A stretch of 64,000 bases of DNA from a virus. The translations under genes and the position numbers were made by a program. Each line of letters opens with the position of its first letter. The stretch's first letter is position 1. The notes below the pieces were generated by a model that had not been told where the DNA came from, ran no database searches, and worked only from the letters and a program-made list of their open reading frames with translations. Where the stretch lies: positions 32,001 to 96,000 of the IMG/VR virus record IMGVR_UViG_3300021957_003133. One strand, 5' to 3'. Below are positions 47,239 through 62,154 of this stretch, one piece after another.

Positions 47239-47454
47239 TTAGAAATCGCCACCATCAAAATCCACATTTACTGCTTGATTATCTTCTTTTTGTATGTTGG
47301 TAAGGTCGTTGATTTTAGTAAGTAATGCAAAAAGATCACTATGTATGTTACGTGCATCCGTTGGAGTTAACACTAATTCTTTAGCGTTAGTCTGATTCAT
47401 AGCCTTAATTTTCTCGTTAAACTTCTTCAGATGCAGACTTAATTGTTGTTCCAT
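47239..47454 (-). CDS. Hypothetical protein (71 aa)
   Basis: Likely start MEQQLSLH after GGAG; ends DGGDF. Confidence 0.65.
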   Translation of the reverse strand: MEQQLSLHLKKFNEKIKAMNQTNAKELVLTPTDARNIHSDLFALLTKINDLTNIQKEDNQAVNVDFDGGDF

Positions 47455-47920
47455 GTAGGGCTCCGTTAGCAATACGCAAATTTTCTTGCATTTCTTCCAA
47501 TGACTGATATGGACCAGCATAAGCGTATCGATTTAATGTAATTAGTTTTGGGCAGTAACTTTTAACCCACCCATTGTTAAATTTAAGTATATAATATCCA
47601 GCACAGAAAAAACTTTTACTTTTTTTTCCTTTAGTAAATACTGGCAATTTTCTAGGAACGTCCCAAAGAATATTTTGTGCTTTGTAGTCACACGGAAATC
47701 CGTAGATACCATGCGATTCTTTTGGTTTGTTTTTGATCGTTGTTTCTACAACAATGTTGTATCTGTCACTGAGACGTTTTAAACTAGTAAACTGTTCCCT
47801 TTCGTCATCGTGCGTGTAAACAACACCTTTTTGGTTAGCTAATATAGTCCCTATTTTATTGCCGTTATCTTCAACTACCCAACATTTATTTTTAACTATT
47901 GCTTTTGCTAGTAAGCTCAT
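47417..47920 (-). CDS. Hypothetical phage protein
   Basis: Likely start MSLLAK after GGAGG; SKSFFCAGYY...CPKLITL. Confidence 0.7.
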   Translation of the reverse strand: MSLLAKAIVKNKCWVVEDNGNKIGTILANQKGVVYTHDDEREQFTSLKRLSDRYNIVVETTIKNKPKESHGIYGFPCDYKAQNILWDVPRKLPVFTKGKKSKSFFCAGYYILKFNNGWVKSYCPKLITLNRYAYAGPYQSLEEMQENLRIANGALHGTTIKSASEEV

Positions 47921-47921
47921 C

Positions 47922-48374
47922 TTACCCTCCTTGATATATCGCTGAGTTAGCACCATGCTCTGCACACTCTACTGAATGTACCCAGCAACGATCGTTTGTT
48001 TGTTCTCTAATTAATTTGTCTGCAAACACAAATGCGTGTTCTGCAAACTTCTCTGCACCAACTCCGTCCATTACTACAATCTCTGCTAGGTCAAACAGTT
48101 CAAGTTCTTTAAATTTTTCTAAGAAAGGGTCATTCTTATCAATCGCTGTCTTATGATCAAAGTGATCTTCTAACCATTTCTTAACCTGTTTAAGTCCACC
48201 AAAGTCTACTGCCCAGTTTTTATTATCTAGTTCACTACAAGCAAACGTAAATTTAAATTGTAAACTGTAGCCATGTAATAAATGACAGTGTGAATGATCA
48301 GCATTAGGTTGCCTAAAGCAGGCTGATAAACCAATGTTGTGTCCGTACGTTTTAGTTGAATAATATGTTGCCAT
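47922..48374 (-). CDS. queD: 6-carboxy-5,6,7,8-tetrahydropterin synthase
   Basis: CHLLHGY, VDFGGLK, FDH, E at the T-fold, EHGANSA; co-occurs with folE and queE. Confidence 0.85.
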   Translation of the reverse strand: MATYYSTKTYGHNIGLSACFRQPNADHSHCHLLHGYSLQFKFTFACSELDNKNWAVDFGGLKQVKKWLEDHFDHKTAIDKNDPFLEKFKELELFDLAEIVVMDGVGAEKFAEHAFVFADKLIREQTNDRCWVHSVECAEHGANSAIYQGG

Positions 48375-48439
48375 CGCTTTCTCCTAGTCTAATAAGCGGC
48401 AGAGTATTTAAAGAGGGTTGACACTGATAAGTCCTCTGT
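48375..48439 (-). promoter_or_regulatory. Candidate riboswitch-like structured 5' leader of queD
   Basis: AGAGG-16-nt loop ending AAC-CCUCU, then an A/U-rich tail, at the predicted transcript 5' end. Confidence 0.45.
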
Positions 48440-48445
48440 AGTAAT

Positions 48446-48474
48446 ATTATATTGTCATTTGTGGCCGAAGTCAA
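48446..48474 (-). promoter_or_regulatory. Sigma70-type promoter for queD
   Basis: TTGACT-17 nt-TATAAT. Confidence 0.75.
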
Positions 48475-49034
48475 AATAAATTTTCAACTATCTGATTTTG
48501 TTTTTTCATCATACTAAAATAAAACTTTAATGTATTAAAAGCATCTTGATCTGCTCTGTGTTGCTCACCATCAAAAGGTATGCTAAACTTTGCCATTGCT
48601 TCTGACAATCCACCTTTAGGATCTGAATTACTACTGAACATCATAAAGTTAAAGATAGTTTTAAGATCAATGATACGACCACCTAGATGTTCAAATGCTA
48701 CATTACGTTCCTGGAACTCTTTGCGTAGTACTGAAACATCATCAAACCCCCATACCACACAGTTTAACCAAGGTCTATGTTCTTTTATTAAAGCTTCAAG
48801 TTCTTGTGCTATGTATTCGTGACTATAACTTTCAGTACGAATATCGTGATCAGTGATACCTGTTAATCTTGTTATGTAAGGGTCAATGGGTTCTTTTGGA
48901 TCTACATACCATTTGGTTGTTACATAGTTTTCAGGTTTTTGACAAGCATTGCCGATAGCAACACCTACTTGTATAATCTTATTGCTGGGTTGATTTAATT
49001 CTAAATCGATTGATATAAAGTTTTGTTTATTCAC
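48471..49034 (-). CDS. DEDDh 3'-5' exonuclease
   Basis: IDLE, LTGI, WG..D, IDLK, HRADQDA. Confidence 0.85.
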   Translation of the reverse strand: MNKQNFISIDLELNQPSNKIIQVGVAIGNACQKPENYVTTKWYVDPKEPIDPYITRLTGITDHDIRTESYSHEYIAQELEALIKEHRPWLNCVVWGFDDVSVLRKEFQERNVAFEHLGGRIIDLKTIFNFMMFSSNSDPKGGLSEAMAKFSIPFDGEQHRADQDAFNTLKFYFSMMKKQNQIVENLF

Positions 49035-50398: not shown

Positions 50399-51481
50399 TT
50401 ATTCCCATCCTATTTTCTCCCAGGGTACGTTTTTATTACCAAAGTGTCCGTAAACACAGTTCTCACTATAGTTATTATACTTGAATAAATCAAATCTGTC
50501 AATGATTCCTAACGGTGTTAAATCAACATTGGATCTAATAAACTTTTCTATAGAACGATTATGCCCATTTGATTCTATGTATATTGATGTAGGTTCTTTA
50601 ACACCAATAGCATAACTTAACTGTATTTGACACCAGTCAGCCATTTCACTAGCTACTACATTTTTTGCTAGCCAACGAGACATATAAGCCGCCGAACGAT
50701 CTACTTTAGTTGGATCCTTACCGCTAAATGCGCCTCCACCGTGTGGTGCCCAACCTCCATAAGTATCTACGATAATTTTTCTACCTGTTAATCCCGAATC
50801 TCCATCTGGACCACCTACTACAAAGTTACCAGTAGGATTGAGATGCCATACAGTATCATCATCTACCAGATGCCCTAACACTGATTGTGCAATCAGTTTT
50901 GTTTCTTTTCTAGCCTCTTCACAATCGCCTTCAGTGTGTTGAGTGCTTATTACCACTTGGTCGATACGCTGTATTTGATCACCTCTATATTCAACACTGA
51001 CTTGACTTTTAGCATCTGGCAAGAATATATCATTGTTTTGTCTTGCTTGCTTTAGTCGTTTAAGTATCTCATGGCTGTAATAGATAGGTGCAGGCAAGTA
51101 TGCTTCATTATCTCTATTAGCATATCCAAACATAATACCTTGATCACCTGCCCCAAAATCGTCTGTACCTAAGGCAATGTCAGCTGATTGGCTATGTATA
51201 TGATTGTCTATTTCTAATGTATTCCAATGGAATCCTTCTTGTTCATAACCAATCTTTTTTACTGTATCTCTAACTATTTGATTAACATCAACAACATTAA
51301 AGTTTTTAACTTCACCAGCTAGTGTTACGTGATTTGTTGCTACTAATGTTTCAATCGCTACTCTTGTTGTGCGATCACCTTCTGTTAACCCAGCATCTAC
51401 TAAGGCATCGGATATCTGATCTGCTACTTTATCTGGATGTCCGTCTGATACTGATTCACTTGTAAATATATATTTGTCCAA
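50399..51481 (-). CDS. metK: S-adenosylmethionine synthetase
   Basis: FTSESVSDGHPDK, GAGDQG, PDAKSQV, GLTGRKIIVDTYGG, GGGAFSGKDPTKVDRS. Confidence 0.97.
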   Translation of the reverse strand: MDKYIFTSESVSDGHPDKVADQISDALVDAGLTEGDRTTRVAIETLVATNHVTLAGEVKNFNVVDVNQIVRDTVKKIGYEQEGFHWNTLEIDNHIHSQSADIALGTDDFGAGDQGIMFGYANRDNEAYLPAPIYYSHEILKRLKQARQNNDIFLPDAKSQVSVEYRGDQIQRIDQVVISTQHTEGDCEEARKETKLIAQSVLGHLVDDDTVWHLNPTGNFVVGGPDGDSGLTGRKIIVDTYGGWAPHGGGAFSGKDPTKVDRSAAYMSRWLAKNVVASEMADWCQIQLSYAIGVKEPTSIYIESNGHNRSIEKFIRSNVDLTPLGIIDRFDLFKYNNYSENCVYGHFGNKNVPWEKIGWE

Positions 51482-52345
51482 TTATTTTCCCCAACTGTTT
51501 CCCCAAAGATCAACGTGTAATCTTGGGCTATAATTGTAGCCACGTTTCATACACTCGTCTGCTACATTAAATTTATTATTTTCATATACTGATACAACAC
51601 CACCTACAGGCATAATATATACTACACCTTTAAGTCCGGCTTCTCTATATGCTTTGACAGCACGATCAACTTCGTCAAAGTCCTTAGGATTTTCAACTAC
51701 AAACTTGAGATAGGTTGTGCCATACTGCTCATAGTCAGCAACAATCTCAGGCTTAACAGCATCTTCCCACTTCTCGCCACTAGCACTTAACTTAGCACTA
51801 ACTGAAAATGTTATATCGCTGTGATAACTATCACCTCGTGCCTTACTCCAAGATTTCATATACTCACCAAACTCTGGATGTATCTTTTGTGTGCCGTTAG
51901 TTTCAAATGTTATATTAATCAAATCTTTCATCTTGTCATTTTCTAATAACTCAGGAAAAGCACGTTGCCAGCCTAGTAAAGGTTCGCCGCCTGTAATTAC
52001 TAAGTGTACATCATTACCGTTAGATTGTACCCATTTATTGTTTGGTGTTAGTTGTGTTAATCTATCTGCTACTGCTTCTGTCTGTAACATAGGTGACAAA
52101 TGTTTGAATCTTGGATCCCATGATGCATAACTATCGCACCCTGTATCTACTAAAGGTAATCCTTCGTATTGATTAAATAGTTCTACTTTAACTTCGTCAC
52201 GCTCTGTTGACAGTTCGCCTCTATTCATACCAAAGCCGCCACATGTGAAGTTACAACCAAATGTACGCAAGAATATACTAGGAACGCCTACAAAACGTCC
52301 TTCGCCTTGTGCTGAATAAAATATTTCACTAATTTTAAGTTTCAT
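51482..52345 (-). CDS. queE: 7-carboxy-7-deazaguanine synthase (radical SAM)
   Basis: EIFYSAQGEG...FLRTFGCNFTC...CDS, TGGEP, ETNGT, PRLH. Confidence 0.88.
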   Translation of the reverse strand: MKLKISEIFYSAQGEGRFVGVPSIFLRTFGCNFTCGGFGMNRGELSTERDEVKVELFNQYEGLPLVDTGCDSYASWDPRFKHLSPMLQTEAVADRLTQLTPNNKWVQSNGNDVHLVITGGEPLLGWQRAFPELLENDKMKDLINITFETNGTQKIHPEFGEYMKSWSKARGDSYHSDITFSVSAKLSASGEKWEDAVKPEIVADYEQYGTTYLKFVVENPKDFDEVDRAVKAYREAGLKGVVYIMPVGGVVSVYENNKFNVADECMKRGYNYSPRLHVDLWGNSWGK

Positions 52346-52367
52346 TTACGCCTTTCGTTAATAGTTT

Positions 52368-52396
52368 ATTATACACTTATTTAGGTCGTATGTCAA
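52368..52396 (-). promoter_or_regulatory. Sigma70-type promoter for queE-metK with an embedded TAAATA
   Basis: TTGACA-tacgaccTAAATAagtg-TATAAT (17-nt spacer). Confidence 0.75.
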
Positions 52397-52854
52397 TGTT
52401 CCCATGGAAAAACTATCCATTCATCTTTTTCTGATTTGTCTATTTCAGTAGCACAATAGTCTACTTCCTGACAGAAACCACTGGACAAGTTGTCAAATAA
52501 TACAGCAAACTTAACATTATGTTGCGGAGTTTGATTTAACTTCCAATCATTGACGATCCAGTTAAGTGTTGCTCCAGTATCATTAATGTCATCTAACACT
52601 AATATTTTTTTGCCTTCACGTGCATCATCTTGCATCCATAGATTATCATCTGTGTCTATGTGATCTCTAAGACTAACCTTTAGTGCGTGCATCGGTATAT
52701 CCAATCTATGACTCATATATACTGCTGGCATTAATCCTCCGCGAGTCAACCCAACTATATAATCGGGTCTAAAGTTATCTTTATACATTTCAAAGCTCAC
52801 TCGATTGACATAGTCATCAATAGTGGGCCATCCTACGTAACGTTTATTATCCAC
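52393..52854 (-). CDS. Type I phosphoribosyltransferase (Gpt-like)
   Basis: GLTRGG, VLDDINDTGAT PRPP loop, WIVFPWE. Confidence 0.85.
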   Translation of the reverse strand: MDNKRYVGWPTIDDYVNRVSFEMYKDNFRPDYIVGLTRGGLMPAVYMSHRLDIPMHALKVSLRDHIDTDDNLWMQDDAREGKKILVLDDINDTGATLNWIVNDWKLNQTPQHNVKFAVLFDNLSSGFCQEVDYCATEIDKSEKDEWIVFPWEH

Positions 52855-60645: not shown

Positions 60646-61726
60646 TGTTGTCTAGCAATTCTTGTGCTGAAAAGAATTTTTCAGTAAGACTGTGTGCCTG
60701 TGCTTTAACTAGATGTATATTAGTATCATAGTTTTCTACAAACCAACGAACAGTTTCTACGATAAACGTTTTGTTCTTTTGATAGCTGTCCCAACTTTCA
60801 GTCCATTCGCTTGGATACTTAAACTTATTAGTATACATTTCACTATAACTTAATCTATCAGGAACAAATGGTACACTATCGACTACTGCTCCTTCGTAAC
60901 AGCTGATACCTAGTGTTTCCTGCAAGTTAGCACTAAAAACCATTTTACTTTCGCCAAGTAATTTATGATATTCATCTTTACTCAATGACTGCTCTTGACA
61001 TATTACCCAGTCAAATTGTGGCAAACTTTTAGCTAAGTCTTTAAATATATCTACCTGTTTCTCTGGTGCTATACGATGTGGAAATAATACAAGATCTCGT
61101 TTAGCAAGACCTTTGTATTCGTTGAGTGTATCACTCATATACTCCATAGGCCAACCTGTACGCACAATCTTTTTCTGATACTTCCATATAGCTAGTTGCC
61201 CATCTCTTTCTTTAGCAAGATCCATACCTAACAAGTTCTCGCAGAACATATCAATATGAAAGTCTGTGGCAAAGTAGTTATGATCAATTGATTCAAAGAA
61301 AGCGTGCTCAGTGTGTCTTACCCAATTAGCATCACCTATCAGTCTACCTAAGAAGTCCTGCGGGTCATATGATCCAGCGTGCCATAGTGCATGTATAGTT
61401 ACTTTTATTCCAAGTAACTCACTCATATACTTTAGGTTAATGATACCAGGATGCCAAGCGTCAGTAAAGATAACGTGATCCCCACTGTGTACTTTACCAC
61501 TAGTGAACAAGCGACTGAGTTCCTCAACTTGTCTAGCCTTGTATATGTTAGTACCACCAAAGTTAAGAAAAGCGCCAGGAGTAGTGGCATTGGGAATATC
61601 ACTAGGTCCTTCAATAATTGTAACATTGTGTCCGTTGTCCTTTAATAGTTTAGGTACGTGAGTTTTCCATTGTCCAGTGTATCTGGATTCAACTGCTTCT
61701 AGATCAACTAAGAACACATTGCTCAC
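60638..61726 (-). CDS. GT-B (GT4-like) glycosyltransferase
   Basis: FPHRIAPEKQ, QETLGISCYEG (E-x7-E), HAGSYD. Confidence 0.7.
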   Translation of the reverse strand: MSNVFLVDLEAVESRYTGQWKTHVPKLLKDNGHNVTIIEGPSDIPNATTPGAFLNFGGTNIYKARQVEELSRLFTSGKVHSGDHVIFTDAWHPGIINLKYMSELLGIKVTIHALWHAGSYDPQDFLGRLIGDANWVRHTEHAFFESIDHNYFATDFHIDMFCENLLGMDLAKERDGQLAIWKYQKKIVRTGWPMEYMSDTLNEYKGLAKRDLVLFPHRIAPEKQVDIFKDLAKSLPQFDWVICQEQSLSKDEYHKLLGESKMVFSANLQETLGISCYEGAVVDSVPFVPDRLSYSEMYTNKFKYPSEWTESWDSYQKNKTFIVETVRWFVENYDTNIHLVKAQAHSLTEKFFSAQELLDNIE

Positions 61727-62154
61727 AGTGTTATTCTCTGTGAAGGTCTTGTAGTATTGTATTCAGTTTCACTACCATTTTCGTTATCTTCTGCAACTGA
61801 AATTTTAACATCTCTAGCTGGATACTTTTCAGCAATCTTCAAGTAAAGTGCATCTGATATCATTTCACAGCTTTGATAGTCAAGTTCTAATTCACCACCT
61901 GTTTGATATAAACTTTCACACCAGCGTTTGAACTGTATAAACTCTAGATCTCTGTCATCGTGGAATACTTGTATCCAAACACGGAAATGGAATATGTGTC
62001 TGTGAGGATGACCTAAGAAACTAACGTCTGCTAGTTTAGGATCATCAAGTGCGGCTGGATAATAGTGAATACCTTCACGCTGGAAAGTAACCCATATCAT
62101 CTTTCTAGCATCAGCCATGATTTTGTCTACACGTTCTCTTTGTTCTTGGTTCAT
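61723..62154 (-). CDS. QueD-like T-fold protein (possible DpdL-like CDG decarboxylase)
   Basis: EGIH, HPHRHIFHF, EFIQFK, SCEM, EDNENG; second QueD-fold gene in the locus. Confidence 0.6.
   Translation of the reverse strand: MNQEQRERVDKIMADARKMIWVTFQREGIHYYPAALDDPKLADVSFLGHPHRHIFHFRVWIQVFHDDRDLEFIQFKRWCESLYQTGGELELDYQSCEMISDALYLKIAEKYPARDVKISVAEDNENGSETEYNTTRPSQRITL

Follow-up and report, generated by a model that had tools for sequence, protein, structure and literature searches.

A conserved pseudoknot in the queD leader of uncultured aquatic phages is a candidate riboswitch

The queD locus and its leader

The window analysed here, a stretch of 64,000 nucleotides, comes from an uncultured virus, whose record is a fragment of 115 kb with a completeness of 33%. 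The window carries a gene of the PTPS/QueD family whose product scores below the cut-off of the NCBIfam QueD model. The genes on either side of the element described here all lie on the minus strand. queD is preceded by a gene for an RNase T-like exonuclease, which ends at 48471; further upstream, again on the minus strand, are genes for a 5'-3' exonuclease, a SAM synthetase, a QueE-like radical SAM enzyme, a phosphoribosyltransferase and GTP cyclohydrolase I. The genes at 50399-52854 (minus strand) suggest that the phage brings its own supply line for the deazaguanine route. In that stretch the SAM synthetase gene comes immediately after the gene of the QueE-like radical SAM enzyme, and the genes for the phosphoribosyltransferase and for a SnoaL-like protein come before the SAM synthetase gene. 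On the other side, queD is followed by an ORF of 182 aa with a GTG start and no Pfam family (47417-47965, minus strand), which as listed overlaps the end of queD by 44 nt; its true start may lie further in.

Between the stop codon of the exonuclease gene and the start codon of queD a promoter is predicted, TTGACT-17-TATAAT, which agrees with the consensus at 11 of 12 positions and has a spacer of 17 nt. Comparative analysis at the sequence level shows the queD leader that would follow (approximately 48439-48375, minus strand) as a small H-type pseudoknot of about 45-50 nt, with the predicted parts given in Table 1. The initial annotation had described a promoter, a 5-bp stem, a 16-nt loop ending in AC and an A/U-rich tail, and each of these is present on the minus strand as claimed; the leader string that it quoted begins at 48442, 3 nt beyond the end that it gave for the element, and the remainder of its description is correct. 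It had also noticed that the tail letters CGCU are complementary both to AGUG of the loop and, together with their neighbours, to the start region, and that the second pairing encloses the Shine-Dalgarno (SD) sequence, which is indeed the case.

Table 1 Predicted features of queD and its leader in the window
Feature	Position	Strand	Remark
queD-like gene, 150 aa, PTPS/QueD family	47922..48374	-	Pfam PF01242, 57.1 bits; putative regulated gene
-35 hexamer TTGACT, sigma-70-type promoter	48469..48474	-	consensus match
-10 hexamer TATAAT	48446..48451	-	consensus match; predicted transcript start at about 48439, 2 nt before stem 1
P1 5' strand AGAGG	48433..48437	-	pairs with CCUCU
Loop 1 ACUUAUC	48426..48432	-	conserved A-C-U at its start; remainder variable in length
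P2 5' strand: AGUG, invariant U (48421, facing C), CA	48419..48425	-	AGUG is 48425-48422
Loop 2 AC	48417..48418	-	C48417 invariant
P1 3' strand CCUCU	48412..48416	-	pairs with AGAGG
Loop 3 UUAAAUACUC	48402..48411	-	A-rich; invariant A-Y-U-C at its end
P2 3' strand: UG, invariant C (48399, facing U48421), CGCU	48395..48401	-	CGCU is 48398-48395, complementary to loop AGUG
Rival helix, 5' half UGCC GCUU	48394..48401	-	shares letters with the P2 3' strand; minimum-energy fold
Shine-Dalgarno sequence AGGAG	48381..48385	-	lies in the loop of the rival helix
Rival helix, 3' half: AAGC, 3-nt bulge (G, A, U), GGCA	48369..48379	-	includes the G of AUG (48372) and the second codon

The minimum-energy fold of the window leader is this second pairing, hereafter the rival helix, in which CGCU and its neighbours pair with AAGC...GGCA around the AUG (48374-48372), and not the pseudoknot, whose P2 duplex alone is weak (-3.1 kcal/mol). 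The fold energy of the single sequence is -10.9 kcal/mol, compared to -12.9 +/- 2.6 kcal/mol for shuffled sequences (z = +0.77). Since the fold is no more stable than those of shuffles, single-sequence folding is worthless as evidence.

Covariation and linkage to queD

A scan of viral contigs for likeness to the QueD protein gave 597 matching stretches, and the best 80 of these 597 were used. About 50 of the 80 have the same layout within the 110 nt before the gene, with different letters in both helices. For a broader search a DNA pattern was written that fixed the conserved single-stranded letters and two inner G-C pairs and left three pairs of stem 1 and four to five pairs of stem 2 free; it found at least 120 phage stretches among the viral contigs. 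Among the 120 phage stretches listed, 108 pair at all three free positions of stem 1 and 118 pair at at least three of four free positions of stem 2, and the neighbouring free pair of stem 2 is formed in all 120. As a control, bacterial and archaeal genomes (596 Gb) were searched with the same pattern; there were 117 matches, with pairing in 9 (stem 1), 21 (stem 2) and 47 (neighbouring pair) of the 117. Only four control matches satisfy both stem tests; these look like true copies on small MAG contigs, and a fifth such copy, found with a general scanner, also lies on a small contig of a metagenome bin.

An alignment of 105 distinct copies was made, in which stem 1 comprises columns 4-8/29-33 and stem 2 columns 19-23 and 25-26 facing 47-51 and 44-45. 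Paired cells make up 94.2% of the stem cells, against 70.7% in shuffles and 32-56% with slid partners, a count that is biased upward because the rows were gathered by a scanner that demands pairing; the unbiased figures are the pairing counts from the pattern alone, given above, and the search of QueD-fetched loci with model R1, given below. Stem 1 is paired in 97.3% of cells, with double changes at four of its five pairs, and stem 2 (columns 19-26/44-51) in 92%, with double changes at six of seven. Covariation among the leaders of phage queD homologues, which the initial annotation had named as a check, is thus found in both stems, with double changes in 10 of the 12 pairs. At pair 26-44, 74 rows have A-U and 31 have G-C, and at pair 22-48 six pair types occur; neither pair is unpaired in any row. 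Six pair types at single positions exclude an artefact of aligning nearly identical sequences. Stem 2 spans seven to eight positions, namely four to five variable pairs, an invariant U opposite an invariant C, then C-G and A-U or G-C; the pairing of loop and tail proposed at the outset is therefore real, and longer than the 4 bp then noted.

Eight invariant letters remain unpaired. These are a C and a U in loop 1, the U and the C of stem 2, the C before the 3' strand of P1 and the A-(Y)-U-C of loop 3, and none of them varies in the 20 rows obtained through the protein search. The C of loop 1 (column 10) is present in 105 of 105 rows and the U (column 12) in 102, both in 20 of 20 rows found via QueD alone, GGACT having been prescribed by the search pattern for about two thirds of the 105 rows. 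Column 28 in loop 2 is C throughout (105/105), preceded in column 27 by A (43), U (47) or C (15), never by G. The closing pair of stem 1 (columns 8/29) is G-C in all 105 rows and in 20 of 20 QueD-only rows, GG and CC being fixed by the pattern elsewhere. Columns 36, 38 and 40 in loop 3 are A in 101-105 of the 105 rows, again pattern-fixed in about two thirds of them. Four rows with a stem 1 of only 4 bp (L024, L028, L042, L063) have a loop 3 shorter by 4 nt, as expected if loop 3 runs along stem 1.

It is hardly conceivable, given the compensating changes at 10 of 12 pairs and the excess of pairing at the free positions over the bacterial and archaeal background, that the hairpin is incidental and its letters are those of a promoter without any RNA function, be it a late promoter (TAAATA) inside it or a divergent promoter on the plus strand, even though loop 3 looks like an A/T-rich box, TTGACA-18-TAATAT can be read on the plus strand across the element (48418-48447) and the single-sequence fold is not significant. 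Of 141 distinct copies, only 5 contain TATAAATA, the T4-type late promoter box, within the element, and the entire window has a single occurrence, where about nine are expected by chance; the late promoter that had been offered as a fallback reading can be dropped. There are no plus-strand genes nearby that a divergent promoter could serve. The plus-strand TTGACA-18-TAATAT is the mere complement of conserved letters of loop 2 and stem 2. A leader peptide was considered, as an ORF of 40 aa crosses the element (48352-48474), but the conservation is accounted for by the compensating changes in the RNA.

R1, a covariance model based on stem 2, is positive in 51 of the best 80 of the 597 QueD-fetched loci, each time directly before queD, and gives no further match at E <= 1 in the 438,739 bases of these 80 loci. 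The phage's own 115-kb record holds one copy (60.6 bits with R1). Altogether, the loci fetched contain 172 copies in 172 loci, and in the 170 with a readable downstream ORF this ORF encodes a QueD/PTPS protein in every case: 169 match the window QueD by BLASTP (33-100% identity) and one is a cut-off PTPS. The start codon follows the end of the knot after 11-39 nt, most often after 17-18 nt. Of 141 distinct copies, 66 have a promoter-like site at most 70 nt upstream, compared to 34 of 662 control windows; 41 of these 66 have a -10 box that ends 6-9 nt before stem 1, so that their RNA would begin at the element. The distance to the end of the upstream ORF is at most 45 nt in 120 of the 141 distinct copies. 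A knot for frameshifting or read-through was rejected because the upstream gene varies and many copies lie at a predicted transcript start.

The element is missing from 29 of the best 80 QueD loci, and in many of these queD overlaps the stop codon of the preceding gene. Such an overlap of the queD start with the upstream stop (..TAATG) is seen in the element-less loci L013-L016, L038, L053-L055, L057 and L060. Translational coupling seems to stand in for the leader in these relatives.

Two copies compared by blastn with 50,697 phage records gave chance-level matches or none. In 8 of the 107 cultured-phage records with a QueD match (phiST, immuto_2-6A, PA5oct, BUCT-ZZ01, MA9V-3, ACP17, Motura and Moby), a search of the queD loci with model R1, filters off, found nothing above 10.6 bits. 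In these searches the element has so far been seen only in uncultured aquatic, mostly giant, phages. Metatranscriptome contigs from four runs (X15-X18), compared with window positions 47600-48900, cover queD of relatives, and those of X17 and X18 extend past 48379 into a leader whose letters read as the tail of the element in a relative. As these data are contigs, transcript starts are not readable from them and the empty bins at 48392-48435 prove nothing.

Covariation in both stems together with the exclusive linkage to queD places the element beyond chance at the level of the family. On these sequence-based grounds we have next to no doubt that it is a real, conserved and phage-specific leader pseudoknot tied to queD.

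The rival helix and the direction of control

The rival helix of the window is, taken by itself, unremarkable: the duplex between tail and start codon has an energy of -8.9 kcal/mol, compared to -7.9 +/- 2.6 kcal/mol for shuffled partners, and 30% of the shuffles are at least as good. When the leaders are compared by eye, three of the eight pairs of the window helix are lost in the closest relative (L001), whose best duplex has -7.2 kcal/mol. Across the family, the best duplex between tail and start region in 116 distinct pairs involves the AUG in 69, the SD sequence in 24, both in 20 and is weak in 3. The mean energies are -8.93 kcal/mol for cognate partners, -6.99 for non-cognate and -6.14 for shuffled ones. 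If the C-A-U after stem 2 is set in a fixed register facing the AUG, 756 cells pair, compared to 344-575 in slid registers, and 75 of 132 leaders have at least six contiguous base pairs; the tail positions covary with codon 2 of queD, with several pair types there. The two competing pairings of the tail, seen at the outset in the window only, recur across the family in these 116 pairs and 132 leaders. With one representative for each of 25 tail classes, the cognate advantage has a Mann-Whitney p of 0.008 and one in 5000 permutations is as good, and the rank of the cognate start region lies anywhere from 1 to 24 of 25 for the individual class. Thus, the ON reading developed below rests on a moderate, family-wide trend.

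When the letters of the putative aptamer were blocked in 135 leaders, the predicted unpaired probability rose from 0.46 to 0.69 for the SD sequence and from 0.15 to 0.48 for the AUG. The SD letters are never part of stem 2, and a terminator-like site was not found in the window leader. As in riboswitches in general, a conserved aptamer-like part is combined with a variable platform that shares letters with stem 2 and offers mutually exclusive pairings, the cognate specificity of which is moderate.

We propose that such an element would work as follows. Without ligand, the weak stem 2 (-3.1 kcal/mol) would be outcompeted by the rival helix, and start codon or SD sequence would be masked. A small ligand, probably a guanine-faced heterocycle of the route from GTP via pterin to 7-deazaguanine, would lock the pseudoknot, the start site would be freed and translation of queD would be switched on. 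The direction follows from the 3' strand of P2: as its letters likewise complement the start codon or the ribosome-binding site, formation of the knot should free this site, and we therefore infer an ON switch, which the initial annotation had not proposed. A bypass of the T4 lysozyme type was considered in this connection and rejected: the masking strand lies downstream of the A-rich box, so a late start inside the element would leave it in place and would not remove the masking.

We regard it as fairly likely that the element is a ligand-sensing riboswitch. If it is one, ON wiring is likely, and the full reading, a pseudoknot aptamer with ligand-driven ON control of queD translation, is moderately likely. 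A different trigger is conceivable. T4 gp32 reportedly uses a pseudoknot in its own leader as a translational operator, and the knot could likewise be real and depend on a protein or on the ribosome, with a phage protein, possibly QueD itself, bound to it. Any trans-acting trigger would be compatible with the structure, with its linkage to a single gene and with the rival helix, and the proximity of the upstream ORF (at most 45 nt in 120 of 141 copies) also speaks for this reading. However, eight invariant unpaired letters within about 45 nt, arranged like a known ligand pocket, are more typical of aptamers, the form of the element is kept before QueD proteins down to 33% identity, and 41 copies start at the predicted transcript start, where no translation runs in. 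We therefore consider an operator unlikely and stay with a ligand-sensing riboswitch.

The direction of the switch is less self-evident. We know of no preQ1 riboswitch that is not an OFF switch, and the logic of switching a biosynthetic gene ON would be less obvious. A ligand-locked knot that ends 11-39 nt, mostly 17-18 nt, before the start codon and 3-25 nt upstream of the SD sequence could hinder the 30S subunit, and feedback by a 7-deazaguanine as end product would act on the first committed step of the pathway, in line with the end-product repression that is the rule for preQ1 classes (PMC11625349). Yet such an OFF switch appears distinctly improbable: the SD sequence never lies within stem 2, the complementarity of the tail to the start region would be purposeless, and the predicted accessibility goes up, not down, when the aptamer letters are out of play. 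An ON switch would fit better with a precursor (dihydroneopterin triphosphate, GTP) or with the guanine set free by base exchange than with the end product.

Ligand candidates and comparison with known RNAs

The phage's own record encodes FolE, QueD and QueE. A full match to Pfam QueC was found neither in this record nor in 55 related records, three of which are 96-100% complete. Divergent proteins of the PP-loop type (195-310 aa) with partial matches to Pfam QueC (25-42 bits; N- or C-terminal part only) are encoded at L319 452-1105, L320 328-1260 and L321 588-1175 (relatives G003, G002 and G008, respectively), 26-73 kb from queD in near-complete relatives. A search of five records with Pfam TGT gave nothing, which says little about a divergent DpdA. 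Pfam PTPS identifies a single gene per genome in the five genomes searched. For an ORF of 143 aa (61723-62154, minus strand) a QueD- or DpdL-like identity is not borne out; it belongs to no Pfam or NCBIfam family and has no BLASTP likeness to the window QueD.

Phages with FolE, QueD and QueE and without QueC can carry 7-deazaguanine in place of guanine (PMC10516641), which makes a product other than preQ1 plausible. Tentatively, and with a chance that we put a little short of even, the element may be a new class of riboswitch of aquatic phages that switches on the first committed enzyme of a guanine-rewriting pathway in response to a ligand other than preQ1: 7-deazaguanine, 7-carboxy-7-deazaguanine, dihydroneopterin triphosphate or guanine from base exchange.

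Few riboswitches have been described from phages, and those few are copies of classes known from bacteria, such as the glutamine riboswitches of marine phages (PMC9004378). The 7-deazaguanine pathway shields phage DNA from restriction (PMC6884629, PMC10516641). Here, a distinct and widespread RNA has apparently arisen, or diverged beyond recognition, within phages, and it appears to control the entry enzyme of 7-deazaguanine synthesis. If the reading as a new class is true, it would be the first riboswitch known to govern a route of phage DNA hypermodification, and it would be a very small natural ON aptamer that, with 45-50 nt and simple wiring, would be a useful tool. The identity of the ligand would reveal what these phages monitor while guanine is replaced in their DNA. 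A description of the element was not found in full-text searches of the literature; the term 'queD' is absent from the main texts of two surveys (PMC5737381 and PMC10043782).

Rfam 15 has no family at gathering score in the window and none at E <= 10 in the 401 nt around the window copy. The preQ1 families likewise give no match at E <= 10 in the 121-123 nt around the copies of L024 and L169. Membership in preQ1-I, for which the initial annotation had proposed a check with Infernal against Rfam, is thus not borne out in any of these three copies. Weak matches to RF03012, the Mu-gpT-DE RNA, are seen at L024 2960-3003 (plus strand) and L169 8632-8674 (minus strand), with 12.5-13.2 bits compared to a gathering score of 49; they cover the 3' half of the element in L024 and L169, not in the window, and are at chance level.

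Among phage RNAs, the mRNA leader of T4 gene 32 comes to mind, which reportedly has an H-type pseudoknot at its 5' end that controls translation and is a nucleation site for the protein. The element shares with it an H-type pseudoknot at the 5' end of a phage mRNA and, as proposed here, the control of translation, but the T4 knot is a nucleation site for a protein and is not known to have a rival helix at the start codon. The wiring resembles that of the adenine (add) riboswitch, a translational ON switch with a bacterial three-way-junction purine aptamer: in both, letters at the 3' end of the aptamer complement the region where the ribosome binds, and the ligand thereby frees the site, or would do so here. 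The add RNA is a bacterial three-way junction, whereas the element is a phage pseudoknot.

The THF-II riboswitch or folE motif is a small bacterial RNA before folE that senses pterins (PMC11317127). Like the element, it precedes the gene for an entry enzyme of the route from GTP to pterin, and its pterin ligand has a guanine-like face; unlike the element, it has another fold, belongs to another family and occurs in bacteria, and a match in Rfam would be expected were the two related. In preQ1-II and preQ1-III, a conserved C together with a conserved U reads out the ligand (PMC11625349). It could be speculated that the invariant U.C of stem 2 is a comparable readout site, but these classes, as described there, are HLout pseudoknots of much larger size with additional helices, whereas the element consists of two helices and has no match in Rfam.

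The closest likeness is to preQ1-I (RF00522), for which the same source (PMC11625349) describes UC or AC directly 5' of the 3' strand of stem 1, with the C as specificity base, and a pocket in which this C, a G-C floor, a uridine of loop 1 and an adenine of loop 3 read preQ1. Both RNAs are H-type pseudoknots linked to a gene of the 7-deazaguanine pathway. The 5-bp stem 1 of the element is likewise closed by an invariant G-C; an invariant C stands just 5' of the 3' strand of P1 and follows A or U in 90 of 105 copies; a U of loop 1 is conserved, and loop 3 is A-rich with an invariant A near its end. C48417 occupies the position of the specificity cytosine of preQ1-I, and we infer its role in the element by analogy. 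The differences lie in stem 2, which has seven to eight positions with a U.C mismatch compared to four steps in the RNA of T. tengcongensis, and in loop 3, which has 10 nt and ends in an invariant YUC. Moreover, preQ1-I has the SD sequence in stem 2 or uses a terminator and is an OFF switch, whereas the SD sequence of the element lies outside stem 2 and the wiring suggests ON, and the element is found only before queD, on contigs of uncultured phages. Of the preQ1-I-like character claimed at the outset, the general layout stands (H-type knot, invariant C, A-rich loop 3), whereas membership in the family is not supported, stem 2 being longer and without the SD letters. This likeness, close and yet unrecognisable to the models, offers an opportunity to test how the ligand and the logic of small aptamers change. 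As the element has an architecture like that of preQ1-I and lacks membership in this family, we would classify it as a new variant, or class, of putative riboswitch-type RNA.
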